A stretch of DNA of 64,000 bases from Candidatus Microgenomates bacterium. GTDB lineage: Bacteria; Patescibacteriota; Microgenomatia; Daviesbacterales; UBA10151. The stretch is taken from contig JACOYE010000007.1 in assembly GCA_016182045.1 (NCBI GenBank), positions 34,121-98,120 on the forward strand, read 5' to 3'. The stretch's first letter is position 1. Every line of letters starts with the position of its first letter. A program made the position numbers and the translations under genes. A model generated the notes under the pieces. That model worked only from the letters and a program-made list of their open reading frames with translations. It made no database searches and was not told where the DNA came from. Positions 3,019 through 59,119 of the stretch are shown one piece after another.

Positions 3019-3057
3019 CAATTCATTGTACGATCGTACACCAAAATGTCAACTATA
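3019..3057. repeat. 37-bp palindrome-containing repeat, copy B
   Basis: ACCAATTCATTGTACGATCGTACACCAAAATGTCAAC, direct orientation relative to copy A. Confidence 0.8.
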
Positions 3058-6289: not shown

Positions 6290-6366
6290 GTCATTGCGAG
6301 GAGCGAAGCGACGTGGCAATCTTTACTAATCAAGATCCTTCGGTCACTTCGTTCCCTCAGGATGAC
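6290..6366. repeat. ~77-bp palindromic hairpin element (GTCATT...GATGAC) in carA-carB intergenic spacer
   Basis: gtcattgcgaggagcgaagcgacg...cggtcacttcgttccctcaggatgac inverted arms. Confidence 0.7.
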
Positions 6367-10470: not shown

Positions 10471-10509
10471 ATACCATTTCCTTGTACGATCGCACACCAA
10501 AATGGTATA
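10471..10509. repeat. 37-bp palindrome-containing repeat, copy C
   Basis: ACCATTTCCTTGTACGATCGCACACCAAAATGGTATAAA in convergent intergenic spacer. Confidence 0.8.
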
Positions 10510-10549
10510 AATTTTGGAAGCTACAAACGCAAGGTGTCACCTTGTGAGG

Positions 10550-11623
10550 CTAAGTAATCTTCCCATTCTCTACCCTTAAAATCCTGGCTGAATCTAAAAA
10601 GGATTTGGGGATATTTTCTAATTCCACTGTGGCTATTATGGTTTGCTGTTTTCCTACTATTTCCACCACATGAGCACGATGTTTACTATCCAGTTCTGAG
10701 AAAATATCATCCAGTAAAAGTATTGGCCTTTTACCCAAAATTTTGGCCATATATTCCAACTGAGAGAGTTTAAAAGCCAAAGTGGCTGTTCTTTGCTCAC
10801 CCCTAGAACCATAATGGGCCAAGTTTCTACCATCCAGCAAAATTGCGAAATCATCCCGATGAGGTCCAATTAATGTTTGAGCTGCAGCCACCTCCCTACC
10901 ATTTGTTTCCATAAGTTTCTCCATACTAACTATGCTTGGTTTATACTCAAATGTAAACTCCCCCAAAGGTTTTTCCAATCCATCAATGAACTCAAAAAAT
11001 ACTTGTCTCTTATCACTAATCACTTTTCCCTTATCCACCAACTCTTTTGTCCAGTAATCCAGTTCATCCACCCTACTTTTTCCTTCCCTGATTCTTTTTA
11101 AAACCCTATTTCTGGCTACTAAAAACTGTTCATATGCTGTCAGAGCTTTCTTATAATCACTATCCACCTGGGCCAAGGCCAAATCCAGATGCCATCTTCT
11201 TAAAGATGGCGGTCCTGTCACCATATTTATATCCGAGGGATAAAAAATTACCGCCGGCAAATTACCTATAAAATCCAAAACCCTTCTTGAGATACCATTA
11301 ACTAAAACCTTCTTTCTAAAATTAACTTCCCCACTTCTGTTAAGAATAACTAAAAGTTCTGTGTCTCCGCCAGCTGGCGGATCAGTTAAGAATGCTTCTG
11401 CTCTACAAAACTTCTCTCCCTCCTTAATTAACTCATCCTCATTCTCAACTCTTAATGATTTAGTAATTGATAAAAGGTAGATTGCCTCCAAAAGATTGGA
11501 TTTGCCGGCAGCATTATTACCAACTAAAATGGTGGGGCGTTGGTCAAAATCCAAAGACAGGTTAGGATAATTACGAAAGTTTGTTAAATTAAGGCTCTTC
11601 AGAAACATAACCAAAATTTTCAA
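10550..11623 (-). CDS. recF: DNA replication and repair protein RecF
   Basis: Walker A GNNAAGKSNLLEA, LLLDDIFSELD signature. Confidence 0.9.
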   Translation of the reverse strand: MKILVMFLKSLNLTNFRNYPNLSLDFDQRPTILVGNNAAGKSNLLEAIYLLSITKSLRVENEDELIKEGEKFCRAEAFLTDPPAGGDTELLVILNRSGEVNFRKKVLVNGISRRVLDFIGNLPAVIFYPSDINMVTGPPSLRRWHLDLALAQVDSDYKKALTAYEQFLVARNRVLKRIREGKSRVDELDYWTKELVDKGKVISDKRQVFFEFIDGLEKPLGEFTFEYKPSIVSMEKLMETNGREVAAAQTLIGPHRDDFAILLDGRNLAHYGSRGEQRTATLAFKLSQLEYMAKILGKRPILLLDDIFSELDSKHRAHVVEIVGKQQTIIATVELENIPKSFLDSARILRVENGKIT

Positions 11624-13099: not shown

Positions 13100-14032
13100 T
13101 CAGCTATTATACCCTTTTTGACAATTAGGGCAAAGGTATGTGCCTCGACCTCCTAATTGAATCTTCTTAATTTTCGTGCCACAAATTTTGCATGGATGTT
13201 TATCACGTCCATAGACATAAGCATAATCTAGAAAATAACCTTTATGGCCTTCAGCATCTACAAAATGAGCTCTGGTGGAACCTCCATATTTAATCCCATC
13301 TTTTAAAGATTTAATAATCCCTTTGTAAAGTTTTTTAAATTGTTCATCATTCAAATCTCTTACTCTTACTCGTGGGTCTAAACCTGCACTAAAACAAGCC
13401 TCATTAGAGTAAATATTCCCCACTCCAGAGACTACTGTTTGATCCATAGTAGCCACTTTTACAGGCATGGATTTATGTCTTAATAGGTTTTGTTTAAGAA
13501 TTTGCCAAGTAAATCCTCTTTCTAATGGCTCTGGTCCCAGATTTTTCAATGAACTGTCCACTGTAACCTGTCCCCTGTCCACTGCTTTAACCCATCCGAA
13601 CTTTCTTTGGTCATTAAAATACAAATGCGAACCATCTGAAAAACTGAATATAATCCTAGTATGCGCATTTGGCATTTTCCCCACCATATCTGGAGTAGGA
13701 TGCCCACCTACTAACCTTTGACCATCCTCATAAATTAATTGTCCAGTCATTTTTAAATGGAATAGTAGGGTAACAAAATTGTCATTCCCGCGTAGGCGGG
13801 AATCCAATTCCGAACGAGACTTTTTTAATTGGATCCCTGCATTCGCAGGGACGACGTCCACACCTAAATACTTAGCTTTTCTCCATATATTGAGTACTTT
13901 TTTACCCTCCACCAAATTTGGATTTCCAATGAAAGATTTAGCAGAATTTATTTGGATTTTGGTAATTTTTAACCCAACAATTTTCTTTTGTAACCCCAGT
14001 TTAATTGTTTCAACTTCAGGTAACTCCGGCAC
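13100..14032 (-). CDS. mutM: formamidopyrimidine-DNA glycosylase with in-frame palindromic-element insertion
   Basis: MPELPEVE N-terminus, C-terminal zinc finger CKICG...CPNCQ; ~30-aa insert between RKAKYL and LLFHLKMTG. Confidence 0.85.
   Translation of the reverse strand: MPELPEVETIKLGLQKKIVGLKITKIQINSAKSFIGNPNLVEGKKVLNIWRKAKYLGVDVVPANAGIQLKKSRSELDSRLRGNDNFVTLLFHLKMTGQLIYEDGQRLVGGHPTPDMVGKMPNAHTRIIFSFSDGSHLYFNDQRKFGWVKAVDRGQVTVDSSLKNLGPEPLERGFTWQILKQNLLRHKSMPVKVATMDQTVVSGVGNIYSNEACFSAGLDPRVRVRDLNDEQFKKLYKGIIKSLKDGIKYGGSTRAHFVDAEGHKGYFLDYAYVYGRDKHPCKICGTKIKKIQLGGRGTYLCPNCQKGYNS
13781..13855. repeat. ~75-bp palindromic element (family GTCATTCCCGC...GCGGGAATGAC), in-frame within mutM
   Basis: gtcattcccgcgtaggcgggaatccaatt...aattggatccctgcattcgcagggacgac; encodes VVPANAGIQLKKSRSELDSRLRGNDN. 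Confidence 0.8.
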
Positions 14033-16677: not shown

Positions 16678-16757
16678 TGATCCCGACGAATGTCGGGATC
16701 CAATTAAAAACCTACCTCAAATGGTTAATTGGATTCCCGCCTATGCGGGAATGACGA
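16678..16757. repeat. palindromic element (same family as 13781 and 29044), intergenic copy
   Basis: gatcccgacgaatgtcgggatccaatt...aattggattcccgcctatgcgggaatgac. Confidence 0.8.
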
Positions 16758-16810
16758 TGTTATTTATTGTAGATCAATTGAAGCTGAATTCCAATCAGGA
16801 GAGTTCATAT

Positions 16811-20528: not shown

Positions 20529-21674
20529 CTACCCTACTGGTAAATTTTTGTCAACTAACTCCAAGATCTCTTTTTTAAATCTTTCTTTAGAAAAATTTTG
20601 GGCATTTTTTCGCAAAATTTCTGGATCAAATTTAGATGGATCAAATTTCTGTAAAGCATCCATTAAACTTTCCACAGTCACCATTCCTGAACCACCATAT
20701 AGAATGCCGGTCCTACCATCCACCACTGTTTCCAAAAATCCACCAGCTTTTGGGGCAATCACCAGGGTACCAGCGGCCATTGATTCCACAGGCACAATGC
20801 CAAAGTCTTCATCTTCTGAAGCCACAACGGTAGCTATAGCACCCGAATACAGCTTTGGTAATTCCTCATCACTTACCTGTCCTAAGAGTTCTATATGATT
20901 AAATTTGATATTTGATATTTGATGTTTGATATTGCTAAACTCTGGTCCTGCTCCCACCACTTTAAGTGGCAATCCCAACTTCCCACAGGCCTCAACTATC
21001 ACGCCTATCCCCTTTCCCCTAACTAATCTTCCTACTGAAAGATAGTAACCATCCTTTTTAGTCTTGAGATTTCTCTCCGCCTGACGGCGGATCGGAATGA
21101 CAGGGAGATTAACTGGAGGATAAATTACCACAGAATCTCTTCTATAAAACTTTTTAATTCTTGCCTGCACTTCTTTGGAATTTGCCACCAAAATATCGGG
21201 CCGCTGTGATGTTTCAAAATCATAAACTCGCAAAATTTGATTAGCTATTTCTCCTAAAATTTTGGTAATAGGATTTTTCTTATAACTAAAGGAGGTGGTG
21301 TAACCATATAAATATCTGGGAGGAGTATGTATATAGCTTATATGCAAGCTTTCAGGCTTGGTAATGACAGCTTTGGCAAAATAAATGCTACACGATGAGA
21401 TAACTAAGTCATATTCAGAAAGATCAAAACTTTCAAAGATTAAAGGAGCAAAAATTCTGAATGGGGAGATAAGTTTTGAAGCCAGTGGAATCTTTTGTAG
21501 CCAAGATGTTCTAATATCCCATTGTTTGATTCTTTCTGCATTGGGACCCAACTGATCGGGGTTGTAATAGGCAGTATACAAAGGAGCATTAGGAAAAATC
21601 TCATGGAGCACTTCTAATACACGTTCTGCCCCACCATATTCCCTTAAATAATCATGGACTAAAGCTACTCTCAC
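20529..21674 (-). CDS. glycosyltransferase family 4, carrying in-frame heptamer tandem repeat
   Basis: EDEDFGIVPVESMAAG GT4 motif; ISNIKHQISNIKFNHI encoded by repeat. Confidence 0.8.
   Translation of the reverse strand: MRVALVHDYLREYGGAERVLEVLHEIFPNAPLYTAYYNPDQLGPNAERIKQWDIRTSWLQKIPLASKLISPFRIFAPLIFESFDLSEYDLVISSCSIYFAKAVITKPESLHISYIHTPPRYLYGYTTSFSYKKNPITKILGEIANQILRVYDFETSQRPDILVANSKEVQARIKKFYRRDSVVIYPPVNLPVIPIRRQAERNLKTKKDGYYLSVGRLVRGKGIGVIVEACGKLGLPLKVVGAGPEFSNIKHQISNIKFNHIELLGQVSDEELPKLYSGAIATVVASEDEDFGIVPVESMAAGTLVIAPKAGGFLETVVDGRTGILYGGSGMVTVESLMDALQKFDPSKFDPEILRKNAQNFSKERFKKEILELVDKNLPVG
20893..20925. repeat. tandem heptanucleotide repeat (ATTTGAT)n inside glycosyltransferase gene
   Basis: atttgatatttgatatttgatgtttgatatt. 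Confidence 0.8.
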
Positions 21675-22900: not shown

Positions 22901-23956
22901 CTAGAGGAAATTGAGAGTCTTATATAAAAAACCATATAATTTAAAAAGCTCCTTAATGTTTTGCCAGCTCAAGGGTCTCTTTGGTTGAACATGTTCGAAA
23001 AGATTGGTTAGGATAAATGCTCCAATTTGTTGTTTTGGCAAGGCCTGAGATAATTTGACAGATTCAACATAAGGCACATAATTATCTGACATATCATGCA
23101 GGATAAATAATTTGCCTTTAAAATCTGGTAAATGCTTTTGGGGATTATATCTTTGCAAAGCCTCTTTTTCTATTGATGGTAGATTGCTAAAAATATCTTT
23201 TATTTTGTTTTCATCATCAATCTCAAATATTTGCGAAGCCTGAGTGGCATGTTTTACTTCCAATAGTGTCTTGGTATGATTTCTGGCATCATCTGCCACC
23301 TTCCACTCTATCCTCTTACCATCCCTCTGATAAGTTTTGGTAGTCAAAGATAGAAGATAATCAAAAATATTAAACTGTCCCCCAAAAAAGACCAGAGCAT
23401 GTACTTTATCAGAAATTTCAGGCTGTGATGCAGCTACCAAAGCTGTGGATGAACCTACAGAAAATCCCACAAACGTTATTCTTTCAGAATCCGTTTGTGG
23501 TAAACCGGCAACATACTTAAAGCTTTCTAAAAAAGTCTCAGGTTCTTCAGGGAGAGATTGTCCTTTATCTAAAACCTCAAGACGTGGCCATAAAACCACA
23601 TAGCCTAATCTGGCCATAGTCTCACCAAAATGCCAAATGAGTGGTTTGTCATCTTCAGAAGTTTTAACTCCCATGGCCAGGATTACTGCTGGTTGGGGTT
23701 GTTGGGGCTTTTGGGGAATATACAGATCAGCCACCACCTTACCTCCGCCAGCTGGCGGATCAAATTCCACCCACTCATGTTGCGGGGACTGAGTGATAAG
23801 CCCTAATGGTTTAACAGGAATCTGAGGGAACTCCTCTGTAATAAAAAGAATGATTTTAAGATGAGTTAAGAGTTGTTTTTGAAAAATTACCACCAAAGCA
23901 AGTATTACCAAAAAAATAATAAGCAGTTTTTTCCTATTAGTTAAACTTTTCGCCAT
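22901..23956 (-). CDS. alpha/beta hydrolase (dienelactone-hydrolase-like), membrane anchored
   Basis: GFSVGSS nucleophile elbow. Confidence 0.55.
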   Translation of the reverse strand: MAKSLTNRKKLLIIFLVILALVVIFQKQLLTHLKIILFITEEFPQIPVKPLGLITQSPQHEWVEFDPPAGGGKVVADLYIPQKPQQPQPAVILAMGVKTSEDDKPLIWHFGETMARLGYVVLWPRLEVLDKGQSLPEEPETFLESFKYVAGLPQTDSERITFVGFSVGSSTALVAASQPEISDKVHALVFFGGQFNIFDYLLSLTTKTYQRDGKRIEWKVADDARNHTKTLLEVKHATQASQIFEIDDENKIKDIFSNLPSIEKEALQRYNPQKHLPDFKGKLFILHDMSDNYVPYVESVKLSQALPKQQIGAFILTNLFEHVQPKRPLSWQNIKELFKLYGFLYKTLNFL

Positions 23957-26519: not shown

Positions 26520-26617
26520 CGGTAGCTTGAATCCACAAATTTATTCCAAACATTGGACGATCGTTTAAGTTATGGCATGTTGGGTTTGGTTTGGGTGGGG
26601 TATGATAAGATGGTATC

Positions 26618-28856: not shown

Positions 28857-31115
28857 CTAAATTTTAAGTGGTTTCATTTCTCCCCAATTGGGGCCTACTT
28901 TTAAATCCACCACCACAGGACCAGATAATTTTAAGGCTTTTTCCATTTTATCTTTAACCATTTTAGCCGCTTCTTTTACCATCCTTGGGTCGCATTCAAA
29001 TAGCAGCTCATCATGAACCTGGAGAATCATTTGGCAAGAATCTGTCATCCCGTACTTGATACGGGATCCATGTGATTTATTTGTATAGATTCCCGCTTTC
29101 GCGGGAATGACGTTGGAAATCTCCACCATGGCTTTTTTGATCATGTCAGCTGCGCTGCCTTGGACCGGATGATTTATGGCAGCTCTTTCTCCTGCAGACC
29201 GAATCATTCTATTATCAGCCTTAAGCTCCGGAATATAACGTCTTCTACCCCATAAAGTTTCCACATATCCTTTTTCATACCCGAAAGCAAGAGTCTCCTG
29301 CATCCATTCCCTAACCAGAGGAAATTGCTCAAAATACTCCATAATATATTGCTGGGCTATTCCGTATTCCACTCCCAGCTGACGAGACAGCGCATGCGGC
29401 CCTTGACCATAAAGGGTGGCAAAATTCATGGTTTTGCCCACCATCCTTTGCTGCTTTGTCACTTTATCTTGAGGCACCTTAAATATTTTTGAGGCAGTCA
29501 AAGCATGAATATCCAAACCTTCTTCAAAAGCCCGTTTTAAACCCGGATCTTTGGAAAGATGAGCCATGATCCTAAGTTCTATCTGAGAATAGTCTGCACC
29601 CAGTAAAACCTTCCCTTTGGGAGAGATAAAAGCCTTTCTGATTTCCCCACCTATTTCCCCTTTTATGGGGATATTTTGAAGATTGGGATTTTGGGAACTG
29701 ATCCTACCAGTGGCAGCGCCTTCCACATTAAAAGTGGAGTGGATTCGTCCATCAGATCCTACTGATTTAGGCAAAGCATCAATATATGTTGAAACCAGCT
29801 TGAATGATTGGCGGTACTCTAAAAGCAACGGTACAACTGGATGAGCTGCAGATAATTCATGAAGTGTTGCCTCATCTGTTGATCTACCTGTTTTGGTTTT
29901 TCTGACAACCGGTAATTTTAATTCATCAAATAACACTTCTGATAGTTGCTTTGGGCTGTTTAGATTAAACTGATGTCCTACTATTGAGTAAATCTCATTC
30001 TCAATCTTTATTAATTTAGCTTTTAGATCTTTCCCAAGTCTATTTAAAAACTTAAGATCTATTAATATTCCCACCTCTGACATTTTCTGAAGAACAGGGA
30101 TAACCTGAGCATCCAGATCTGATGTTGTTTTTGATTGTCGGAATGACTCAGAAGGACTCGGAGTACCAGACAAATCAGATTTCCGGTTTGTCTGACTATC
30201 AGATTTACTGACACGCTGGTTATCTGAGTTTTCCGAGTGTTCTGAAACACCAGGAATTCTTCCCATCAAGCTCTTAAACTCCAACTCCTCAAATAATCCC
30301 ACCACTTTATCCTTATCAAAATCTTGTACCTGACACTTTTTCAGATCCAGCTTAATGGGAGCTTTAGTATCCAAGGTGGCCAGTTTTTTGCTCATCACAG
30401 CAGATTCAGCTCCCTCAGACAAAAGGGTCTGCATTCTCTCTGGTAAAGTTTTCAAGTTTTGAGGCTGATAGATGTTTTCTATTTCACCAAACTGGTGAAT
30501 CAGCTTGGTGGCTGTCACGTCCCCTATCCCAGCTACCCCTGGAATATTATCCGAGGCATCACCTGCCAAGGCTTTATAATCCACCAAAAGTTTTGGCTCA
30601 AATCCGTAACGGAGAACAAATTCTTCCTTCCCATAAAGCCCCACATCGGCAAGGGTTTTTTTGGGCATAAAAACTTTTACTTTTCCATTAATTAGCTGCA
30701 TGATATCCCGATCTCCTGTCACCACGATTAATTCCATACCATGATCCAGTTTTTGAGCTTGCAAAGCCAGTGTGCCGATTAAATCATCCGCCTCATATCC
30801 AGCCAGAGAAAATTCCGGGATATTAAATGCCTCTACCGTCTGATGGACTCTTTTGTATTGGTTATCCAAAGCCTGATCCATTTCAGCTCTGGTGGCTTTA
30901 TACTGAGTATAAGTCTGATGCCTAAAGGTGGGTCCCCTTTCGTCCCAACAAACAGCCAGATAATCGGGCTTAAGTTCAGAAATAACCTTCAGAACCATCG
31001 AGGAAAAACCATAGACAGCATTCACTAACTCCCCTTTGGAGGTGGTAAAAGGAGGGGTGGCATGATAGGCACGGTGAAGCAAAGCATTCCCATCTACAAG
31101 TACCAGTCGCTTCAT
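28857..31115 (-). CDS. polA: DNA polymerase I lacking 3'-5' exonuclease domain, with in-frame palindromic-element insertion
   Basis: 752 aa; 5' nuclease N-domain, S-rich low-complexity linker, polymerase motifs incl. QVHDELLFE. Confidence 0.9.
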   Translation of the reverse strand: MKRLVLVDGNALLHRAYHATPPFTTSKGELVNAVYGFSSMVLKVISELKPDYLAVCWDERGPTFRHQTYTQYKATRAEMDQALDNQYKRVHQTVEAFNIPEFSLAGYEADDLIGTLALQAQKLDHGMELIVVTGDRDIMQLINGKVKVFMPKKTLADVGLYGKEEFVLRYGFEPKLLVDYKALAGDASDNIPGVAGIGDVTATKLIHQFGEIENIYQPQNLKTLPERMQTLLSEGAESAVMSKKLATLDTKAPIKLDLKKCQVQDFDKDKVVGLFEELEFKSLMGRIPGVSEHSENSDNQRVSKSDSQTNRKSDLSGTPSPSESFRQSKTTSDLDAQVIPVLQKMSEVGILIDLKFLNRLGKDLKAKLIKIENEIYSIVGHQFNLNSPKQLSEVLFDELKLPVVRKTKTGRSTDEATLHELSAAHPVVPLLLEYRQSFKLVSTYIDALPKSVGSDGRIHSTFNVEGAATGRISSQNPNLQNIPIKGEIGGEIRKAFISPKGKVLLGADYSQIELRIMAHLSKDPGLKRAFEEGLDIHALTASKIFKVPQDKVTKQQRMVGKTMNFATLYGQGPHALSRQLGVEYGIAQQYIMEYFEQFPLVREWMQETLAFGYEKGYVETLWGRRRYIPELKADNRMIRSAGERAAINHPVQGSAADMIKKAMVEISNVIPAKAGIYTNKSHGSRIKYGMTDSCQMILQVHDELLFECDPRMVKEAAKMVKDKMEKALKLSGPVVVDLKVGPNWGEMKPLKI
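29044..29110. repeat. palindromic element (GTCATCCCG...GCGGGAATGAC) in-frame inside polA
   Basis: gtcatcccgtacttgatacgggatcc...gattcccgctttcgcgggaatgac; encodes VIPAKAGIYTNKSHGSRIKYGMTD between conserved Pol motifs. Confidence 0.8.
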
Positions 31116-44691: not shown

Positions 44692-44850
44692 AAGTTACAT
44701 CCTTTAAAATCTTTTAAGAAAATGCCTATGAGTAATTTATGAAGATCTAGAAGTTGTTTATAGCCAAACTAGCCCCTGTCCCGCCTCGGCGGAACCAGAG
44801 GTTCCTTTATTTATATTATTTCTATCTAGTCTTTCCATATTTTCCTTTAT

Positions 44851-47419: not shown

Positions 47420-48211
47420 TCAAGTTTTCTTAAGAGATCTTGGAGGAGCACCATCATATTCAATCTCCTCATCAGCAATTCTTCTGAATGGCTTTTCTCT
47501 GACCCATTCCTCAAAAATATGGGCCACCAGCCCTACCACCCTGCCTATTATGAAAAATCCTTTACCTAACCTATAATCAAAACCCATATCAGAAATAACC
47601 GCTGCTATTGCCCCATCCACATTAATGGGGATCTTTTTACCCTTTTTCTCCTGTAGCACACCCTCTACATTTTGAGCCAGTTCACAATGTTCCCCATAAA
47701 AACCTAACTTTTTGGCTTTTTCAAAAATCTGGGTAGCTCTGGGATCTTCATCTTTATAGACTTTATGCCCGAAACCAGGGATTCTATCACCTGAACCCAA
47801 AACTTTTTCCACCAGCTTTTCTGCAGTTAATCCCATCTGAAGTAACCTGGCACACTCTTCAATTGCTCCTCCATGGGCATCCCCTATTCCCAAAACTCCG
47901 GCAGCCACTGCTGCTTGCATGGGATTACCAGCTGAGGCTGAATTCCTGGCATTAGTCACAGATGGTGGACCTAAACCATTATCTATTGTGGAAATAAGGA
48001 TAGCATCCAGCATAGCTCTTTCTTTATCAGAGGGAAGTTCACTTTTTAATTCCAGCCAGATAGCATCTGTAAAATTAACTTTATCTATCAATTCTGTGAC
48101 TTTATAACCATGAATATGAGCCTCCCCATCAATTATCCCTGAAATAGCTGTTTTCCACTTTTTATCCATATTTGAATAAGTTCTCCAAGTTACAAGATAC
48201 AAGTTTTCCAA
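47420..48211 (-). CDS. citryl-CoA lyase-like protein (citrate-synthase-fold, ACL C-terminal domain homolog)
   Basis: citrate synthase signature GFGHKVYK.EDPR. Confidence 0.7.
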   Translation of the reverse strand: MENLYLVTWRTYSNMDKKWKTAISGIIDGEAHIHGYKVTELIDKVNFTDAIWLELKSELPSDKERAMLDAILISTIDNGLGPPSVTNARNSASAGNPMQAAVAAGVLGIGDAHGGAIEECARLLQMGLTAEKLVEKVLGSGDRIPGFGHKVYKDEDPRATQIFEKAKKLGFYGEHCELAQNVEGVLQEKKGKKIPINVDGAIAAVISDMGFDYRLGKGFFIIGRVVGLVAHIFEEWVREKPFRRIADEEIEYDGAPPRSLKKT

Positions 48212-48275
48212 AAAATAATCAAATTCAAAAGTTTAAATTCTAAAATTTGGGTTTTTGAATTTGTTTGTAACTTGT

Positions 48276-49172
48276 TTACTTGGACACTTGATTGTTTAAT
48301 AAACCAGGTATTTCATCTGGAGTTTTGGCTATTTTGACACCGGCTTCCTCAAACGCCTTAATTTTTGATTTATAACTGCCTTTCTCTCCATAAATTATTG
48401 CTCCTGCATGGCCTAATTTTGTACCCTGAGGTAAAGTTTCTGCAAATAAACCAGATATAAAGGCAACTACTGGTTTTGTGAAACCACCAGATTTGATCAG
48501 TTCTGCAGCTTCTTCCTCATATGTTCCACCTATTTCCCCAAATAACACCACAGCCTCAGTTTGAGGGTCTTTTTCAAATTCTTCCATCAAATCTGCAAAA
48601 GTTGAGCCCACCAATATATCTCCACCAATACCCACCACAGTTGATTGCCCAATTCCATTTTTGGTAAGAATCCATGAAACTTCCGAGGCCATTCCTCCTG
48701 ATTTTGAGATTACACCTACTGATCCTTTGGAAAAAACTCCTCTGGGATCATCTCCTCCAATTGAACCAACCTTTCCTATTCCTGGTGAGATTATCCCAAT
48801 TGATGAAGGACCGACAATTCTGACAGTCTGTTTGGCTAAAGCTATTGCCTTGGCAGTATCTTGGATGGGAATATGTTCTGTTAAAACATTTATAAGAGGA
48901 ATTTTGGCCTTAATTGCTTCCTCTATTGCCCCAAATGCAGCAAAGTTAGGCACAGCGACAAATGAAGTATTTATCCCTGGATGATTCTCTAAAGCCTCAG
49001 CTATTGTATTATAAACCGGCACTCCATGAACTTCCTGACCGCCTTTACCAGGAGTTACTCCAGCCAAAACGCGAGTGCCATAATTTTTCATCTGCAAGGC
49101 CACTTTGGACCCTTCTTTACCGGTGATACCTTGAACTAAAACTTTGGTTTGTTGGGTTATTAGAATAGCCAT
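48276..49172 (-). CDS. succinyl-CoA synthetase alpha-like subunit (CcsB/AclA N-domain-like)
   Basis: CoA-binding VLVQGITGKEG; phosphohistidine loop GHAGAII. Confidence 0.85.
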   Translation of the reverse strand: MAILITQQTKVLVQGITGKEGSKVALQMKNYGTRVLAGVTPGKGGQEVHGVPVYNTIAEALENHPGINTSFVAVPNFAAFGAIEEAIKAKIPLINVLTEHIPIQDTAKAIALAKQTVRIVGPSSIGIISPGIGKVGSIGGDDPRGVFSKGSVGVISKSGGMASEVSWILTKNGIGQSTVVGIGGDILVGSTFADLMEEFEKDPQTEAVVLFGEIGGTYEEEAAELIKSGGFTKPVVAFISGLFAETLPQGTKLGHAGAIIYGEKGSYKSKIKAFEEAGVKIAKTPDEIPGLLNNQVSK

Positions 49173-49334
49173 TAAATTTCTCCTTTAAAAGCAGCGCAGT
49201 CATGAGCATAAAAGCAATTAGAAAGTTTTGTGTGTAGATACCCGTCACAAAACTTTCCCATAGCGAGACTAGAGATATATCTCAATGTTTCAGTATCCAC
49301 TAGTCGAGCGGTGCTTTTTGCCATGACAAGCTGA

Positions 49335-50549
49335 TTATTTTCCATAAGCCAGATCTACCATAATCTTTGCTGTACTTGTCATCGGTGTCTCCCTCCCATA
49401 TATATGAAAATCAAAACCCTCTTTCTTACCCACTTCTTTTAACATCTCAAAAGCTTCTTTATCCCTTGGTCCACCACGCCGGATCACAATTGGGTATATA
49501 GGCTTAGGCTTGATCTCTCGCAACCCTTCCACAAAGCCCATTAAAGTTTCATAAATATCAGTAAAATTGGCTGTTCCGCCCACAAACCAACAGCCTTTTA
49601 ACCCAGGTTTTGATAAAACTATCTTGGTTAGTTTTTTTAATTTCTCACGCGGAGGATTACCTGAGTGCTCAGTATAATTGGCAGGTCTTCCACCATATGC
49701 CAAAAGCGCATCCATATTGACAATAGACCCTCCACCTCCGGCTGCAATAACTGCAATATCTCCATCTAAATCCCAATAAACAGAACCTGCTGTACCTCTG
49801 TGATCCCCTTCATCAATTTTGCGGGCCTCAATTTCAGCCTCAGTTGGAGGCCTGCCAAAAAGATTTCTTTCCGGGAATTTTACCTCACGTCTAAAATCAG
49901 CATCATCATCCAAAATCACTTTGGCATCTAAGGCATATACTTTTGCATCACTTCGACTCGAAGACTCGCTCAGTGAATATTGGCTGAGCGAAGTCGAAGC
50001 CTTACCTATAACTAATGGATTTATTTCCGCTAACTCACAATCATATTTAGTAAATACTTGCCATAATTTATTAGCCACATCCACTAGCTCTTTTGGAAAA
50101 TCCTGTGGAGTTTCAAATCCTTTTAAAATATCAACAGGATAACTTTGTGCCCTCTTTTCCTCTACCCCAGTTCCTCCCTCCCCAAAAGTCATGATGGGGC
50201 CACGGGTTGAAGTATCATAGGAAAATGATAAATAATACTCTTTTTCATATTCCACTATCTCCTCTACCAAAACCTTTTCCACCTTTTCCCCATTAATCGT
50301 TTTTCCAAATAATTCTTTTAGGCTGGTGCTTACTGCCTGTTGACTGTCCACTTTTATGATTCCACCAGATTGCGCTCTTTTGCCAGATAAAGTTTGTGCT
50401 TTTAAAACCACCCCATCTGTCATTCTGACCCTGAGCGCAGTCGAAGGGGAAGAATCTAATTCCTCATGAGCTGTGATAAACTGTGACTCTGGCACATTTA
50501 TCCCACAATTTTTAAAAAGAATTTTGCCTTCAAATTCATAAAGAAGCAT
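49335..50549 (-). CDS. succinyl-CoA synthetase beta-like ATP-grasp subunit (CcsA/AclB-like) with two in-frame hairpin-element insertions
   Basis: ATP-grasp N-domain; low-complexity inserts SLSQYSLSESSSRSDAKV and SSPSTALRVRMTDG. Confidence 0.8.
   Translation of the reverse strand: MLLYEFEGKILFKNCGINVPESQFITAHEELDSSPSTALRVRMTDGVVLKAQTLSGKRAQSGGIIKVDSQQAVSTSLKELFGKTINGEKVEKVLVEEIVEYEKEYYLSFSYDTSTRGPIMTFGEGGTGVEEKRAQSYPVDILKGFETPQDFPKELVDVANKLWQVFTKYDCELAEINPLVIGKASTSLSQYSLSESSSRSDAKVYALDAKVILDDDADFRREVKFPERNLFGRPPTEAEIEARKIDEGDHRGTAGSVYWDLDGDIAVIAAGGGGSIVNMDALLAYGGRPANYTEHSGNPPREKLKKLTKIVLSKPGLKGCWFVGGTANFTDIYETLMGFVEGLREIKPKPIYPIVIRRGGPRDKEAFEMLKEVGKKEGFDFHIYGRETPMTSTAKIMVDLAYGK
49949..50001. 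repeat. hairpin element (CTGAGCGAAGTCGAAG family) inside SCS-beta-like gene
   Basis: cacttcgactcgaagactcgctcag...ctgagcgaagtcgaag inverted arms. Confidence 0.7.
50419..50456. repeat. hairpin element (GTCATTCTGACCCTGAGCGCAGTCGAAGG) inside SCS-beta-like gene
   Basis: shares CCTGAGCG(A/C)AGTCGAAGG core with 51417 copy. Confidence 0.7.
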
Positions 50550-50550
50550 A

Positions 50551-51864
50551 TTACTTTAATTTATCTCTAAAATGATCATAACTGGTTAAAGCAGGAGTAT
50601 GTTCAGTTACTTCTAATTCTTGTTTTACAAGTACTTTTTTATTTTCTTTTACATCTCCATATAAAACCACCCCTGGCCCAACCAAAGAGTTAGATCCCAC
50701 CCTTGCCCCAGGCATGGTGGAGGCATTTACCCCAACTCTTGATCCCTTTCCAGCTATCAACCCCAGCTTATGTCTTCCAGAGTCCACCTTTTCCTCCTCA
50801 CCCACCCTAATTGTATGGTCATCCAGCCTTAAATTTGCCAATACTGCCCCGGATCCCATTCCAAAATCTCCCTCTATTACACTATCCCCAACATAATTAG
50901 TATGGAACCAGGAATTTACTCCAATATATGATCTGGTGATATCTGAGTTAAATCCAGTCACACATCCCTCTTCTAAGTCAGATTCCCTTACCATTGTGTT
51001 GTTACCCACAATACAATTTTTTCCAATGTAAACCGGACCCTTAATAACTGCTCCTTCAAAAACTCTTACTCCTTCCTCAATCACCACTGGACCTGTAATA
51101 ATTGCCTTATCAGACACATTTGCTCCCGGGGAAATTTGTTGTTCAATCTTACATAAAAGGTGAGTTGTAATATCTAAAATCTGCCATGGGTATTTTAAGG
51201 GAATCCAATTGCCTTGATATTTTGAAAACCTTACATCCAATCCGTCAGCAATCATCTTATCCAAAGCTATCTCATATAGATCATCTTTATCGCTTTTTGC
51301 ATTCTGCAGATATTCCACCAGTTTTTTACCATCTTTAAAGTAATCAACCACAAGTTTTACCAAATCAGATGGCTCATTCCCTTCCCCTGGTTTTTCCACT
51401 ATACCCTGTACCCTACCTGTCCTGAGCGAAGTCGAAGGATTCCCTGTACCCTTTTTTATATACCCTCCTGGAAAATATTTCTCTACCTTTAATCCAGCTA
51501 CCACCACATCTGCTCCTCCCTGGGATACTTGTACATAGATTGATCCATCCACCACATCTTCAGCATTAACTACCAAAACTTCACCCTCTAAATATTCCTT
51601 GGCGGAAAGTAGGGCATCTGCCATACCTTTGGGTTGTTTTTGTACAACAACTTGGAACTTAAGATTTAAAGCTTGAGCAATTTTAGTCACCTCAGCTTTG
51701 CTTTGTGGAGTGGAAACAATCACAAATTCGCCATTCACATTCTCCTTAATTTTTTTGAGATTGTGATACAAAAGTGGCTTTCCCAAAAAAGGGATCAGAC
51801 ATTTATCGGTATTTATCGGCCACATTCTTTTGCCTTCCCCACCAGCTAAAACAATTATTTTCAT
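50551..51864 (-). CDS. sugar-1-phosphate nucleotidyltransferase with C-terminal hexapeptide-repeat domain (GlmU-like)
   Basis: N-terminal LAGGEGKRM nucleotidyltransferase motif, C-terminal LbH repeats; insert NPSTSLRTGRVQG. Confidence 0.8.
   Translation of the reverse strand: MKIIVLAGGEGKRMWPINTDKCLIPFLGKPLLYHNLKKIKENVNGEFVIVSTPQSKAEVTKIAQALNLKFQVVVQKQPKGMADALLSAKEYLEGEVLVVNAEDVVDGSIYVQVSQGGADVVVAGLKVEKYFPGGYIKKGTGNPSTSLRTGRVQGIVEKPGEGNEPSDLVKLVVDYFKDGKKLVEYLQNAKSDKDDLYEIALDKMIADGLDVRFSKYQGNWIPLKYPWQILDITTHLLCKIEQQISPGANVSDKAIITGPVVIEEGVRVFEGAVIKGPVYIGKNCIVGNNTMVRESDLEEGCVTGFNSDITRSYIGVNSWFHTNYVGDSVIEGDFGMGSGAVLANLRLDDHTIRVGEEEKVDSGRHKLGLIAGKGSRVGVNASTMPGARVGSNSLVGPGVVLYGDVKENKKVLVKQELEVTEHTPALTSYDHFRDKLK
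51417..51445. repeat. hairpin element copy inside GlmU-like gene
   Basis: cctgtcctgagcgaagtcgaaggattccc. Confidence 0.7.
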
Positions 51865-51873
51865 ATGATATAT

Positions 51874-51903
51874 CCTTCGAAGTCGAAATTTCGACCGAGA
51901 AGT
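51874..51903. repeat. palindromic CGAAGTCGAAATTTCGAC element in intergenic spacer
   Basis: ccttcgaagtcgaaatttcgaccgagaag. Confidence 0.55.
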
Positions 51904-51964
51904 TACCTTAAAAACTATTATAGTTTATCAGGACTGTTCTCGCTAATCGCTCGAACAATAATAA

Positions 51965-52037
51965 GTACCAGGGGTGGGGATCGAACCCACAACCGCCACG
52001 TTATGAATGTGGTGCTCCGCCATTGAGCTACCCTGGC
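51965..52037 (-). tRNA. tRNA with CAT anticodon (elongator Met or lysidine-type Ile)
   Basis: cloverleaf readable: acceptor GCCAGGG, D arm GCTC/GAGC, anticodon loop TTCATAA, T arm GTGGG-TTCGATC-CCCAC. Confidence 0.75.
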
Positions 52038-52069
52038 TTGAGATAAAAATTGTACCAAAAAGGAGTTAA

Positions 52070-53437
52070 TTAAACAAAAAAGAAGTAGATTGTGGTAACT
52101 GCTGCCAGCCCCATAATCAGTGCAATCATCCATCCTAAAATAGTGGTGATTGGACCATTTGTCTTATCCCCCATCACTTTTTTGCTGCCACTAAGTAAAA
52201 TAATCAAAACCAAAATTACAGGTGCAATTAAACCATTAAATAAAGCTGTATAAATAAGTACTTTAATGGTATCTAAGTTTAAAAAATTGATAGATAAACC
52301 AATCAAAGTGGAAATAATAATCACCCCATAAAAGGCGTTTGCCTCCTTAAGTTTTCTGTAAAGTCCATATTTCCAGCCAAAACTTTCTGAGATTGCATAA
52401 GAGGCAGAACCTGCTAAAACCGGTATTGCCAAAAGTCCTGTTCCAATAATGCCTGCCGTAAATAAAAGATATGTAAACTCACCGGCTATTGGCCTTAGGG
52501 CCTCTGCAGCATCAGCTGCTGTTTGTATATTTGTTACTCCATTGGCATATAAAGTGGCAGCTGAGGCTGCGATAATAAAAAACATCACCAAATTGGAAAG
52601 AAACATACCTGACCAAACATCCATTCTCATATCTTTGATATCCTTATCTGTAGTACCTTTTCTTAAAGCTATAGTGGTTTTCCCTTGCATAATTTCCTCT
52701 TCAATCTCTTGTGAAGTTTGCCAGAAGAAAAGGTAGGGAGAGATGGTGGTGCCTAAAACTGCTGTTACTAAAAATATCCACTCTTTAGACACATCAAATA
52801 CAGGAGTAATCGTATGGGTAAGAAGTTTCTCAAAATCTAAATTGGTACTTAGAGCAGAGAAAACATATGCCAAAAGAATCAAAGCCAGCCATTTTAAGTA
52901 CTTAGCATATCTGTCATAGGTGGTGAATATCTGCAAAGCCAAGGAGAAAATGGCAAAGCCTAAAATTAATGTATCAAAGCTAAGGTGGGGCGAAATAAGC
53001 TGAGTGGCTTTAGCCATAGCTCCTAAATCTGCACCAATATTTAAAGAATTGGCAGCAAAAAGTAAGCCTGCGCAAATATAAAGTACCCATTTGGGATAAT
53101 AGGCTCTAATGTTTGCAGCCAAGCCCTTACCTGTCACCAACCCTATTCTTGCACACATCTCTTGCACTACTGCCATCAAGGGAAAGGTAAATGGTGCCAG
53201 CCAAAGAAATTGAAAACCATATTGGGCACCTGCTTGAGAGTAAGTGGCAATGCCTGAGGGGTCATCATCGGCAGCACCTGTTGTTAAACCAGGGCCTAAA
53301 GTATGCCAATATTCCCTGGCTCTTTTCATATCTTTATGATTCGTAACGTCTTTTACAAGTTGTTTCGAGGTATCTAACGTCCTGCCTAAAGCCACAGCTG
53401 GAGCCTCAGCAACTTGCTTTAAGAATTTTTCATCCAT
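52070..53437 (-). CDS. mntH: Nramp-family divalent metal (Mn2+/Fe2+) transporter
   Basis: GPG..DDDPSGIATYSQAGAQYGF...LW consensus. Confidence 0.85.
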   Translation of the reverse strand: MDEKFLKQVAEAPAVALGRTLDTSKQLVKDVTNHKDMKRAREYWHTLGPGLTTGAADDDPSGIATYSQAGAQYGFQFLWLAPFTFPLMAVVQEMCARIGLVTGKGLAANIRAYYPKWVLYICAGLLFAANSLNIGADLGAMAKATQLISPHLSFDTLILGFAIFSLALQIFTTYDRYAKYLKWLALILLAYVFSALSTNLDFEKLLTHTITPVFDVSKEWIFLVTAVLGTTISPYLFFWQTSQEIEEEIMQGKTTIALRKGTTDKDIKDMRMDVWSGMFLSNLVMFFIIAASAATLYANGVTNIQTAADAAEALRPIAGEFTYLLFTAGIIGTGLLAIPVLAGSASYAISESFGWKYGLYRKLKEANAFYGVIIISTLIGLSINFLNLDTIKVLIYTALFNGLIAPVILVLIILLSGSKKVMGDKTNGPITTILGWMIALIMGLAAVTTIYFFFV

Positions 53438-53478
53438 AACTTAAGGGTAGAATAAACAAACAGATGCGTCAACCCCGA

Positions 53479-53733
53479 TTAAATCGGGGTTAATTTTAAT
53501 CCTAAAATTCTGATTTTTTGTTCTCTGCTCCAGCCTTTTATTTGTCTTTCTCTTTTTAAAGCTTCTGATTGATTTGGTAATTTCTCAGAATAAATCATCT
53601 TAAGAGGTTGATGGGATCTGGTGTAATGCCCGCCTTTGCCATTTTTATGATCAGAAAATCTTTTTTCTAAATTATTAGAAACCCCAGTATAAAGACTGCC
53701 ATCTTTACATAAAAGTACATAAACAAACCACAT
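53479..53733 (-). CDS. GIY-YIG nuclease family protein
   Basis: FVYVLLCKDGSLYTGVSNNLEKRFSDH pattern. Confidence 0.8.
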   Translation of the reverse strand: MWFVYVLLCKDGSLYTGVSNNLEKRFSDHKNGKGGHYTRSHQPLKMIYSEKLPNQSEALKRERQIKGWSREQKIRILGLKLTPI

Positions 53734-53760
53734 AATGTATATTTTATGCTACAATATGCA

Positions 53761-53832
53761 CGCGGGGAAGTGTAACGGCTGCACACAAGGCTCATAATCT
53801 TGAGGCAGTGGGTTCGACTCCCGCCCCCGCAA
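53761..53832 (+). tRNA. initiator-type tRNA-Met (CAT)
   Basis: 5' CGCGGGG and 3' CCCCCGCAA acceptor identical to E. coli tRNA-fMet (C1xA72 mismatch), anticodon loop CTCATAA. Confidence 0.8.
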
Positions 53833-53882
53833 CACTTCGACTCCACTTCGGTAAACTCAGTGTCGCTCAGTGCAGGCACAAA

Positions 53883-54242
53883 TTATCTAAAAAACAACCT
53901 CCACCAGCCTAGCCAATTGGGAAGCCTAATTTGGGCAGATTCAGAAGTGCCCAGAACCTCTTTTAGCTTTTCTTCAGGAATAATCACCACTGTCTCGCCT
54001 GCTTTGGCCAAACCCAGCTTATTTCTGGCTTGCTCTTCAATAAACTCCTCTGATTGTATCTGGGAAAGTTTCTCCTTTAGCTGCCTGTTTTGAGCCTGAA
54101 GCTGAGCTAAATTGTCTGCCTCTTGAGAAAGCCTCTCGGAAGATTTGAGGGCATCTGAGATTTGATTGATCAGATTATAGCCAATTAAAAACATTATCAA
54201 AATGGCAATTCCCAAACTGATCCTTTTAATCATACTTGACAA
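53883..54242 (-). CDS. ftsB: septum formation initiator FtsB/DivIC-like protein
   Basis: N-terminal TM followed by coiled coil. Confidence 0.6.
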   Translation of the reverse strand: MSSMIKRISLGIAILIMFLIGYNLINQISDALKSSERLSQEADNLAQLQAQNRQLKEKLSQIQSEEFIEEQARNKLGLAKAGETVVIIPEEKLKEVLGTSESAQIRLPNWLGWWRLFFR

Positions 54243-55135
54243 AATTATCCTATAAACTTAAAATATGTGCCATGGCATCTCTAAAAGACGCTCATCAGCA
54301 ATTTATAGATCATCTTAAGAGTAAATCCCGTGCTTCAGCTACTATTTTAGCTTATGGTAAAGATACAGAGCAACTGGTGCAATATCTTAATACTTTAGGC
54401 AAAACTGAGACAGCTGATGTGAAGTTGGAGGATCTCCAGGCCTTTATGGCCAATTTGGCCAAAGAAAATTATACCCCCAAATCAATTTCCAGAAAAACCA
54501 ATTCCACCAAAACTTTCTTTAAATTCTTAAAATCAACTGGAGCAATTTCTGATGATCCTGCATCTGCTCTTGAACATCCCAAATTTGAGAATAAACCACC
54601 CAGGATTTTGACTAAGCTGGAATACAGGGCCTTAAGAGATGCAGCCAGATTAGATATCAGAATTTATGCCATCATCGAACTTCTGCTGCAAACAGGCATT
54701 AGAATTGGTGAACTGGCTAAAGTTAGGGTGGAGGATGTCGATGTTGGAAATTTAACACTTCATGTTCCCCCTTTTGAAGGAGCCAATGAAAGAATTATCC
54801 CTTTAAATAAACCAGCTGCAGAGGCTGTGGAAAATTATCTTAAAATCAGGCCTAAAACCCCTTCTCATGCCCTGTTTGTAACCAAAACAGGCAGGCCCCT
54901 GCTTATTAGAAATATTAGAACAGCCATAGATAGATATTTTAGAATTGCGGGTATTAAAGGGGCCAAGGTCAATGATTTACGCCACACCTGGGTGGCTCAC
55001 CAGCTCCAATCAGGAGTACCATTAACCATGATTTCCAAGTTAGCAGGTCACAAGAGACTTTCCACCACAGAAAGATATCTGCAATTTATTACTGGCCAAA
55101 ATGCCGAAGGAAAAGTTAAGCTGGAAGAGCTCTAA
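54236..55135 (+). CDS. tyrosine site-specific recombinase (XerC/XerD or integrase)
   Basis: C-terminal R...HxxR...Y catalytic region LRHTWVAHQL...GHKRLSTTERYL. Confidence 0.85.
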   Translation: MTKLSYKLKICAMASLKDAHQQFIDHLKSKSRASATILAYGKDTEQLVQYLNTLGKTETADVKLEDLQAFMANLAKENYTPKSISRKTNSTKTFFKFLKSTGAISDDPASALEHPKFENKPPRILTKLEYRALRDAARLDIRIYAIIELLLQTGIRIGELAKVRVEDVDVGNLTLHVPPFEGANERIIPLNKPAAEAVENYLKIRPKTPSHALFVTKTGRPLLIRNIRTAIDRYFRIAGIKGAKVNDLRHTWVAHQLQSGVPLTMISKLAGHKRLSTTERYLQFITGQNAEGKVKLEEL

Positions 55136-55846: not shown

Positions 55847-55899
55847 ATAACAAAAATTGTATGATATTCATACATAAATGTCAATTAGCAAAATGCCGG

Positions 55900-55972
55900 T
55901 GGGCGGACCAGGACTTGAACCTGGAACCAATTCTGTATAAGAGAACCGCTCTACCAATTGAGCTATCCGCCC
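55900..55972 (-). tRNA. tRNA-Ile with TAT (UAU) anticodon
   Basis: acceptor GGGCGGA/TCCGCCC, D arm GCTC-AATTGGTA-GAGC, anticodon loop CTTATAC, T arm CCAGG-TTCAAGT-CCTGG. Confidence 0.65.
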
Positions 55973-58750: not shown

Positions 58751-59119
58751 CTAATACCAGATGACCTTGCCTATTATTTGTTCCTTGTTAATCGATCCAA
58801 ATTTTCTGCTATCTAGGCTATCTGTTTTATTATCTCCTCGGACATAAATTGTACGATCGTCCAAACTATGGATACGTTTAACTACCTCTTTGCCGTCAAC
58901 CTTAATCACCACAATATCACCCGCTTTTAAACCGACCAGTTTCCACCAATTAAGCACTAATACATCCTGATCTGGTTTTAATGTGGGCAGCATACTATTT
59001 CCGGAAACAGTAAATCTAAGAATGGGAAACAATTTCACCTTCAGTTGGGTAACCTGACGGAATCCTGGCTGGTTCCATGCCTTTTGTTTTCCAGAAAATC
59101 TCGGCAATTTCCTGGACAT
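58751..59119 (-). CDS. sodX: nickel-SOD maturation peptidase (signal peptidase I-like S26), true start probably internal
   Basis: S26 serine motif GNSMLPTL; directly downstream of sodN. Confidence 0.65.
   Translation of the reverse strand: MSRKLPRFSGKQKAWNQPGFRQVTQLKVKLFPILRFTVSGNSMLPTLKPDQDVLVLNWWKLVGLKAGDIVVIKVDGKEVVKRIHSLDDRTIYVRGDNKTDSLDSRKFGSINKEQIIGKVIWY

Follow-up and report, generated by a model that had tools for sequence, protein, structure and literature searches.

Three short segments in two adjacent genes of a Candidatus Microgenomates bacterium are probably copies of a very small, non-autonomous and structured DNA repeat of the repetitive extragenic palindromic (REP) type inserted in both genes, a reading to which we assign a probability of about 70%. 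They lie in a 64-kb stretch of contig JACOYE010000007.1 (assembly GCA_016182045.1, positions 34,121-98,120), hereafter the window, which is the part of this genome that was read. Both host genes are intact open reading frames (ORFs) on the minus strand: one encodes an ATP-grasp plus citrate-binding protein (CcsA-like; 49335-50549, 404 residues), and the other an archaeal-type bifunctional sugar-1-phosphate nucleotidylyltransferase/acetyltransferase (GlmU-like; 50551-51864, 437 residues). Their survival there would be due to the preserved reading frame, the lack of stop codons and a position in surface loops.

The core of the repeat is CCTGAGCG(A/C)AGTCGAAGG, and a scan of the window with CCTGAGCGMAGTCGAAGG, allowing up to 3 mismatches, returned exactly three matches (49983-50000, 50430-50447 and 51421-51438), all on the plus strand and within 1.5 kb, against 0.03 expected from shuffled sequence. 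The first of them carries 2 mismatches, by which the outermost C...G is swapped to G...C with its pairing preserved. The original prediction, made from the letters of the window, had described three hairpin elements of the same orientation, translating in frame to similar peptides; orientation, frame and peptides are borne out by the plus-strand scan and by translation of the intact minus-strand ORFs (...ASTSLSQYSLSESSSRSDA..., ...DSSPSTALRVRMTDG... and ...GNPSTSLRTGRVQG...).

Comparison with orthologues shows that the three segments are insertions, as had been predicted. In MAFFT protein alignments of 118 CcsA-like and 120 GlmU-like orthologues, accompanied by codon alignments with DNA from related contigs, all three fall in columns filled by fewer than about 20% of the orthologues, and conservation of the segments across unrelated orthologues was not found in these alignments. 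Both the GlmU site and the second site of the CcsA-like gene (CcsA site 2) are empty in L003, which is the nearest relative at the DNA level and carries the closest GlmU relative (82% identity). Related loci form a series at CcsA site 2, comprising the empty L003, an 18-nt single core in L001 and a doublet of 51 nt in the window and 60 nt in L002 (the latter folding at -28 kcal/mol), and some insert, from several repeat families, is found there in 25 of 119 orthologues. The GlmU insert is missing from approximately 112 of 121 orthologues; at the level of DNA loci (36 site matches), the site is empty, with V-[ED]-G-[ED]-[RKS]-V-x uninterrupted, in 20 of the 27 distinct site sequences. Carriers hold exactly 8 or 9 additional codons at this site, and two loci (L001 and L397) have a different, GCGAAG-containing module at the same codon. 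AlphaFold2 models of both proteins (mean predicted local distance difference test score, pLDDT, of 82.5 for CcsA-like and 78.7 for GlmU-like) locate the added residues in coil of low confidence that lies between beta-strands: CcsA residues 31-40 are modeled as coil with a mean pLDDT of 55, while pLDDT is below 50 for CcsA residues 186-200 (between strands 171-182 and 204-206) and for GlmU residues 140-148 (between strands 134-138 and 151-157).

The copies differ in their build. CcsA site 2 (49950-50000, about 17 extra residues, CcsA residues ~184-203) is a head-to-head inverted doublet forming a long hairpin, whose left arm (49951-49973) is a core in reverse orientation, enlarged by 7 bases at the apex, followed by the spacer TGAATATTG and the right arm GCTGAGCGAAGTCGAAGC (49983-50000); the stretch 49949-50001 folds at -25 to -26 kcal/mol, with z about -4.1 to -4.5 (ViennaRNA), and it is for this true two-armed element that the predicted hairpin character holds by folding energy. 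CcsA site 1 (50419-50456, plus strand, encoding ...DSSPSTALRVRMT...) does contain the core, and its description can be refined: the full core CCCTGAGCGCAGTCGAAGGG (50429-50448) occupies the apex of an older, outer hairpin with a GTCAT tag that belongs to a sister family (GTCATTCTGA...GAAGAATC). The GlmU copy, a 24-nt unit on the plus strand (51415-51438) in which the tag ACCTGT precedes the core CCTGAGCGAAGTCGAAGG, encodes PSTSLRTG (GlmU residues 142-149). Outside the genes, a palindrome at 51874-51903, between a tRNA-Met and the glmU-like start codon, fuses the core 10-mer CGAAGTCGAA (51878-51887) to TCGAAATTTCGA and folds at -11.3 kcal/mol (z = -2.2); its proposed kinship with the core stands by virtue of this common 10-mer, which has 3 matches in the window vs. 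0.03 expected. Finally, a split copy of opposite orientation, CTTCGACTCC[ACTTCGGTAAACTCAGTG]TCGCTCAG (53835-53870, minus strand), abuts the 3' end of the tRNA-Met at 53761-53833, and the split pattern CTTCGACT-gap-CGCTCAG is matched twice in the window vs. 0.00 expected.

Site 1 allows the nesting to be followed across lineages. On the plus strand, the window reads TGTCATTCTGA[CCCTGAGCGCAGTCGAAGGG]GAAGAATC, L352 and L353 read TGTCATTCTGA[GCGYCAGC]GAAGAATC and L246 reads TGTCATTCTGA[TCCCGCCTTTGGCGGGA]GAAGAATC, and no element is present in L003 or L001; an older tagged hairpin is thus common to many orthologues (...DSSLTLRMT... peptides), with differing apex modules. The apex position that holds 7 extra bases in the left arm of the window doublet holds 10 in L002, as a GCC-GAA-GGC mini-hairpin, and extra apex bases also occur in L004 and in the split copy at 53835. 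In a Flavobacterium contig (L084), the core lies inside the apical loop of a Flavo-1 RNA. Across these alignments, orthologous sites are empty in most relatives and are filled by different modules in different lineages, and the core is nested in the apices of other hairpins, some of which are older members of the superfamily to which it belongs.

The element family is real, as the original prediction had it, yet it is not peculiar to this genome. The exact 18-mer, with its middle base free, occurs at no fewer than 120 loci in contigs from one genome per species. Among the matches listed, to which the following counts for genomes (134-135 copies) and viral contigs (137-140 copies) all refer, the hosts include Cyanobacteria, Bacteroidota, Acidobacteriota, Chloroflexota, Planctomycetota, Spirochaetes, Proteobacteria and several groups of the candidate phyla radiation (CPR), with cultured representatives such as Flavobacterium tructae, Treponema saccharophilum DSM 2985, Pedobacter, Algoriphagus and Sphingobium; a shorter version of the core is found in viral contigs, with a maximum of at least 4 copies per contig. 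Most copies in other genomes look intergenic, although 27 of 135 lie within long open frames. In-frame cores were seen in genes for a ComM/Mg-chelatase (Saccharibacteria), an ATP-dependent DNA ligase (Curtissbacteria), a MeaB-methylmalonyl-CoA mutase fusion (Flavobacterium tructae), an E1 dehydrogenase (Flavobacteriaceae) and a type II secretion ATPase (Nitrospirae). The coding strand of the CPR in-gene copies seen always reads CCTTCGACT..., whereas non-CPR examples also include the opposite orientation (LSxVEG).

These copies define the unit as an 18-nt mini-hairpin, CCT-GA-[GCGNAGTC]-GA-AGG, with a covarying stem of 4-5 bp around a constant 12-nt interior, GAGCGNAGTCGA. The middle base N is A in 67 genome copies, G in 34, C in 21 and T in 13, and the flanking pair at -1/+1 is Watson-Crick in 108 of 134 copies, vs. 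58 +/- 5 after shuffling; in the viral copies, with the outer pair of the 18-mer left free, this next pair inward is C-G in 35, A-T in 30 and G-C in 18 cases, and Watson-Crick in 88 of 137 vs. 39 +/- 5. A 5' tag, GTCAY or CCTGY, often precedes the core, giving a unit of 24 nt (5' flanks among 134 copies: GTCAC 14, GTCAT 13, CTCAT 9, CCTGC 17 and CCTGT 10), and the unit exists both as singletons and as a head-to-head doublet. Relaxing the apex reveals a wider superfamily, CCCTGAG-[CCTG, CTTG or CGNAG]-TCGAAGGG, and the general architecture in Daviesbacteria loci is GTCAY, YCY, GA, [apex], GA, RGR, RT; all 13 GA-bracketed elements have a complementary outer stem pair, and their apices, of 4-20 nt, are all self-complementary. 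As a separate observation, the intergenic stretch 6291-6366 of the window holds two GTCAT-tagged hairpins arranged tail to tail, GTCATTGCGAGGAGCGAAGCGACGTGGCAATC and its opposite-strand partner GTCATCCTGA[GGGAACGAAGTGACC]GAAGGATC, the second of which shares the GA-bracketed architecture with the core repeat.

Several identities were considered for the unit and set aside. A general role as intrinsic terminator was rejected because T-runs are not enriched downstream of the core, either in genomes (16 of 134 copies vs. 11-12 in controls) or in viral contigs (9 of 140 vs. 13-17). By inspection, UUCGACU resembles a T-loop, but its flanks are unpaired, which speaks against an origin from a tRNA T-arm; a hammerhead core would require a spacing other than that of CUGA...GAA, and the 3-nt bulge of a k-turn is missing. 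Targets of diversity-generating retroelements were also discarded: bAvd-like genes occur in the L001, L003 and L246 operons and none in the window, and the inserts lie outside a variable-region context. An Rfam scan of 49300-54300, with E up to 10, gave only two tRNAs above the gathering score and no Flavo-1 match, and full-text literature searches with the DNA motif, its reverse complement, the sister motifs and the derived peptides, as well as searches on CPR and palindromic insertions, returned nothing relevant.

As for the structure behind the pattern, the interior may form a short stem that contains one bulged T and is capped by a GNA triloop, and tandem sheared G.A pairs may bracket this interior, the Y-GA-R context being favorable on both strands. 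Such a fold would explain both the free middle N and why standard energy models underrate the hairpin. Copies might be made in trans on single-stranded DNA by a hairpin-recognizing enzyme, as has been proposed for REPs with their REP-associated tyrosine transposases (RAYT) and for IS200/IS605 ends, in which case hairpin apices would be favored targets; we put this route forward tentatively, at rather less than even odds. Template switching or short-patch gene conversion between copies would be a second route, which we consider somewhat less probable than the first. The encoded peptides (PSTSLR...) would be passengers, and not what selection acts on.

A number of observations weigh against reading the segments as mobile REP-type copies. 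The single copies at 50419-50456 and at the GlmU site are single "arms" with z near 0 and no stable hairpin by ViennaRNA, so that the hairpin character predicted for them does not show in folding energies; their hairpin nature is supported by the covariation across other genomes. The sheared G.A/GNA fold is itself something we infer. Neither a transposase nor any other mobilizing gene was found in the 64-kb window, where a crude HUH...Y motif scan in six frames yielded no candidate, and the comparison of filled and empty sites gave no consistent direct repeat or target-site duplication and no fixed target motif; short repeats near the window GlmU insert (CCCTGTACC and CCTGT) had been considered as target-site duplications and were dropped, since they were not reproduced in L245, L246 and L248. 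The window holds five related copies in total, all inside 4 kb (3 of them in genes), together with the related intergenic dimer at 6291-6366. Lastly, the neighbor-joining tree of GlmU is poorly resolved, and the patchy distribution could reflect one old insertion with many losses, or recombination between lineages.

The last point corresponds to the alternative that survives best, although we still hold it to be unlikely: each insert would have been gained once, in an early ancestor of Daviesbacteria, and then often lost or moved by homologous recombination, with no recent or recurrent insertion. All carriers use the same codon boundary, the core has stayed unchanged next to a 6-nt tag that has diverged (ACAGGT, ACTGGT, AACGGC and GTTGGT among carriers), and the two-armed hairpin is common to the window and L002, whose proteins are no more than 70% identical, all of which would agree with a single gain. 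Such a history demands, however, many precise 24-nt deletions without flanking direct repeats, and different families occupy the same site. Besides, the carriers are scattered singly over the tree: GlmU orthologues bearing PSTSLRxG each have insert-free nearest neighbors on the neighbor-joining tree, where the sisters of the query (P0122 and P0130) are also insert-free. In any case, this alternative touches only the history of the inserts, and leaves the nature of the element unchanged.

Although its codons are rare, the core is conserved as a nucleotide sequence within the GlmU-like gene. The same six codons (CCT TCG ACT TCG CTC AGG) are used in the window, L245, L246 and L248, four lineages that are saturated at their other synonymous sites; in the window, TCG represents 5% of Ser codons and CTC 3% of Leu codons. 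Outside the core, an identical codon in all four lineages is found at 23 of 145 comparable columns (shared residue with at least four-fold degeneracy), a background that would give six identical core codons with P about 1.6e-5. Since the core codons are identical while the tag and the rest of the gene have diverged, the core has been either repeatedly re-inserted, or homogenized by conversion, or selected at the nucleotide level. The third option leads to a further explanation, improbable in our view and a step behind the single gain, under which the core is retained in genes as a nucleic-acid signal, that is, as an exapted functional element and not as a tolerated selfish insert; examples would be a protein-bound RNA or DNA hairpin, a site of processing or pausing, or a signal for recombination or replication. 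Rare codons conserved at synonymous sites in four lineages, stems that covary around a constant interior across phyla and phages, and the shared orientation relative to the gene of all CPR in-gene copies seen are what such a signal would lead one to expect. Nonetheless, the mRNA carries the complement, CCUUCGACUUCGCUCAGG, which lacks the G.A/GNA features, the insert is lacking from most orthologues, another module occupies the same codon in L001 and L397, and neither an Rfam family match nor an enrichment of downstream T-runs was obtained.

Ordinary lineage-specific protein loops, alike by chance or through selection for Ser/Thr/Pro-rich linkers, are a very improbable source of the segments: they do lie in loops and encode polar, flexible peptides, but the 18-mer is present three times in the window and again, within coding as well as non-coding DNA, in many phyla and in phages, conservation acts on codons and not on the peptide alone, and the sites of the nearest relatives are empty. 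Practically negligible is an artefact of assembly or sequencing (chimeric joins at a high-copy repeat or an adaptor-like sequence), for although the sources are mostly metagenome-assembled genomes, the same inserts occur at the same codons, in frame, in independent NCBI, ENA and Logan assemblies, and the core is also found in cultured isolates.

Beyond the reading of the segments as REP-type copies, a bolder and rather doubtful extension can be formulated, namely that the GA-bracketed mini-hairpin CCT-GA-GCGNAGTC-GA-AGG is the substrate of a widespread, hypothetical hairpin-specific insertion or copying activity which writes modules of 18-24 nt. If true, this activity would write them into hairpin apices and coding DNA of many phyla and phages, and selection or biased conversion, operating on the nucleotide sequence, would keep the module in place within CPR genes. 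No smaller class of mobile or templated DNA module would then be known, and the module would offer a handle on the spread of REPs lacking a transposase.

Regarding the host genes, the window is AT-rich (36-41% GC), its GC skew is negative throughout, and nearly all of its long ORFs are on the minus strand. The product of ORF 49335-50549, labeled "SCS-beta-like" (succinyl-CoA synthetase) in the original prediction, is better described as ATP-grasp plus citrate-binding, according to a profile search (Pfam ATP-grasp_2 8.6e-29 and Citrate_bind 4.7e-25), with an NCBIfam sucC-like match under the cutoff of that model; by these domains, the gene resembles the large subunit of citryl-CoA synthetase or ATP-citrate lyase. 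Its database twin is a 100% identical protein of a Candidatus Microgenomates contig (NCBI), its nearest relatives belong to Daviesbacteria, and the lengths of its orthologues span 363-446 residues. The GlmU-like protein matches NCBIfam TIGR03992 (Arch_glmU, 2.6e-74) as well as Pfam NTP_transferase and Hexapep. Because an SCS-alpha-like gene and a citryl-CoA lyase follow the CcsA-like gene in the same operon, the set looks like a citryl-CoA synthetase/lyase operon; it covers 47420-50549 (citryl-CoA lyase, SCS-alpha-like and ATP-grasp/citrate-binding genes), is kept across Daviesbacteria, and resembles, in a CPR genome, a two-step ATP-citrate cleavage system (CcsAB plus Ccl). The operon is a hotspot for several kinds of small insertion. 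Between the same genes of orthologous operons, a gene for a 23S_rRNA_IVP/bAvd-like four-helix bundle or toxin-antitoxin pairs (RelB/YafQ, BrnT/CopG) are found (L001 5176-5571, L003 6753-7139, L246 6641-6970), and none is present there in the window. The window also contains two tRNA-Met(CAT) genes (51965-52037 and 53761-53833) and a tRNA-Ile with anticodon TAT (55898-55972; ARAGORN), which is uncommon among bacteria.

Other repeats share the window. Copies of cGTCATTCCCGCGNNGGCGGGAATCCA and of a GGATCCCTGC...GCAGGGA variant, partly as inverted pairs, are located at 13772-13865, 16681-16764 and 29081-29112, those at 13772-13865 apparently just upstream of the likely ATG (~13751) of a minus-strand gene. 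GC-rich palindromes, TCCGCC-AGCT/TGAC-GGCGGA, occur at 11358-11386, 21072-21099 and 23728-23763, inside the long minus-strand ORFs 10550-11623, 20529-21674 and 22901-23956, respectively, and also at 44763-44805; they are probably the other family of coding-sequence palindromes implied by the original prediction, and PAG(R/K) peptides in orthologue inserts look like products of this family. A palindrome, TGTACGATCG(C/T)ACA, with conserved flanks (2477-2506, 3019-3048, 10483-10511, 26545-26574 and 58843-58872; families D1/D2, I4, I12, I13 and I15) is reminiscent of highly iterated GATC-centered palindromes. Heptamer-like (CCCTGTC)n stretches, as in ACTGTCCACTGTACCCTGTCCCCTGTC, are found at 4617-4643 and 13553-13579, the gene strand reading as GACAGGG repeats; a similar GACAGGGGACAGG stretch lies within the CcsA-like gene of L001, and CCTGTCC is also the junction of tag and core in the GlmU insert. 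A family D9 (4617, 13553 and 51391) was not retained, since the resemblance of its third copy is treated as coincidental: that copy overlaps codons native to GlmU (RVQGIV, which is homologous to the KVVGIV of L003).

Among known systems, the core meets Flavo-1 RNA (RF01705) in the Flavobacterium contig, where it lies within Flavo-1 matches; it is there an apical-loop insertion outside the covariance model, and the window is free of Flavo-1 matches. Miniature inverted-repeat transposable elements have terminal inverted repeats related to an insertion sequence, a target-site duplication and lengths of 50-500 bp, unlike the core units of 18-24 nt with no consistent flanking direct repeat. GTAG-tagged REP/REPIN sequences, associated with RAYT, are short imperfect hairpins present as singletons and as inverted doublets (the presumed mobile unit), form mosaics of the type of bacterial interspersed mosaic elements, and leave no target-site duplications. 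The core is likewise a short imperfect hairpin, found as singletons and an inverted doublet and in mosaics with other repeats; unlike them, it lacks the GTAG (GT[AG]G) head, its 5' flanks are GTCAY/CCTGY, 3 of its 5 copies are coding, and the six-frame scan of the window gave no candidate for a RAYT (Y1 HUH) partner. Palindromes in frame in conserved protein genes of Rickettsia, the Rickettsia palindromic elements (RPE), namely RPE-1 and its relatives, were reportedly described by Ogata and colleagues in 2000. RPE-1 is approximately 100-150 bp long and restricted to Rickettsia, and represents a tolerated surface addition, present or absent among orthologues; the core inserts are also in frame in protein genes and present or absent among orthologues, but measure 18-60 nt, reside in a CPR host and have a core common to several phyla. 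Palindromic repeats in protein-coding sequence, previously recorded in Rickettsia and in a few Proteobacteria and Verrucomicrobia, are extended to CPR bacteria, whose small genomes are usually called streamlined, and an 18-nt module with a constant interior is common, letter for letter, to distant phyla and phages. The orthologue series (empty, single core, doublet, nested and alternative modules) supplies before/after material for REP copying without a known transposase; the inserts also inflate and diversify orthologue lengths, and recurrent peptides such as PSTSLR, RLRSGQA, LSxVEG and PFDxAQ can mislead metagenomic annotation and alignment.

The closest likeness is to the second of the two superfamilies, GTAG- and CGTC-tagged, into which REPs were sorted by Di Nocera, De Gregorio and Rocco 2013 (PMC3733652). 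In that paper, CGTC (also TGTC or CCTC) tagged repeats are 20-40 nt long, with an unpaired 5' tag, perfect stems of 8-9 bp starting with A-T and loops of 4-5 nt; they are dispersed in multiple copies, mainly between genes, occur in five phyla, exist as singletons and often as head-to-head dimers, may insert within other palindromes, can be inside ORFs, adding residues to enzymes, have no known transposase and include Neisseria dRS3 and Rickettsia RPE-4/RPE-6. The format of cGTCATTCCCGCGNNGGCGGGAATCCA (CGTC tag, 8-bp stem starting AT, 4-nt loop and CCA tail) fits the text description given there for CGTC-1 REPs, of dRS3/RPE-6 type. The core family, in turn, resembles CGTC-tagged REPs in size, head-to-head dimer, nesting, cross-phylum spread and intragenic copies, and two of its copies, at site 1 (cTGTCATTCTGA, 50418-) and in the GlmU-like gene (ccTGTCCTGAGCG), have a CGTC-type tag, TGTC, in front of them, the doublet's right arm having none; across phyla, about 30% of the listed copies start with GTCAY, and half of the tags are CCTGY. 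Unlike them, the core has a 4-5 bp stem and a constant 12-nt interior, with an A-T start only in GTCAT-type copies, and CPR bacteria are not among the hosts reported for CGTC families. We file the core repeat as one of the REP/RPE kind, unnamed and outside the named families (set apart from the four CGTC families by text description only), because its stem and loop depart from their definition while so many of its traits are shared with them.

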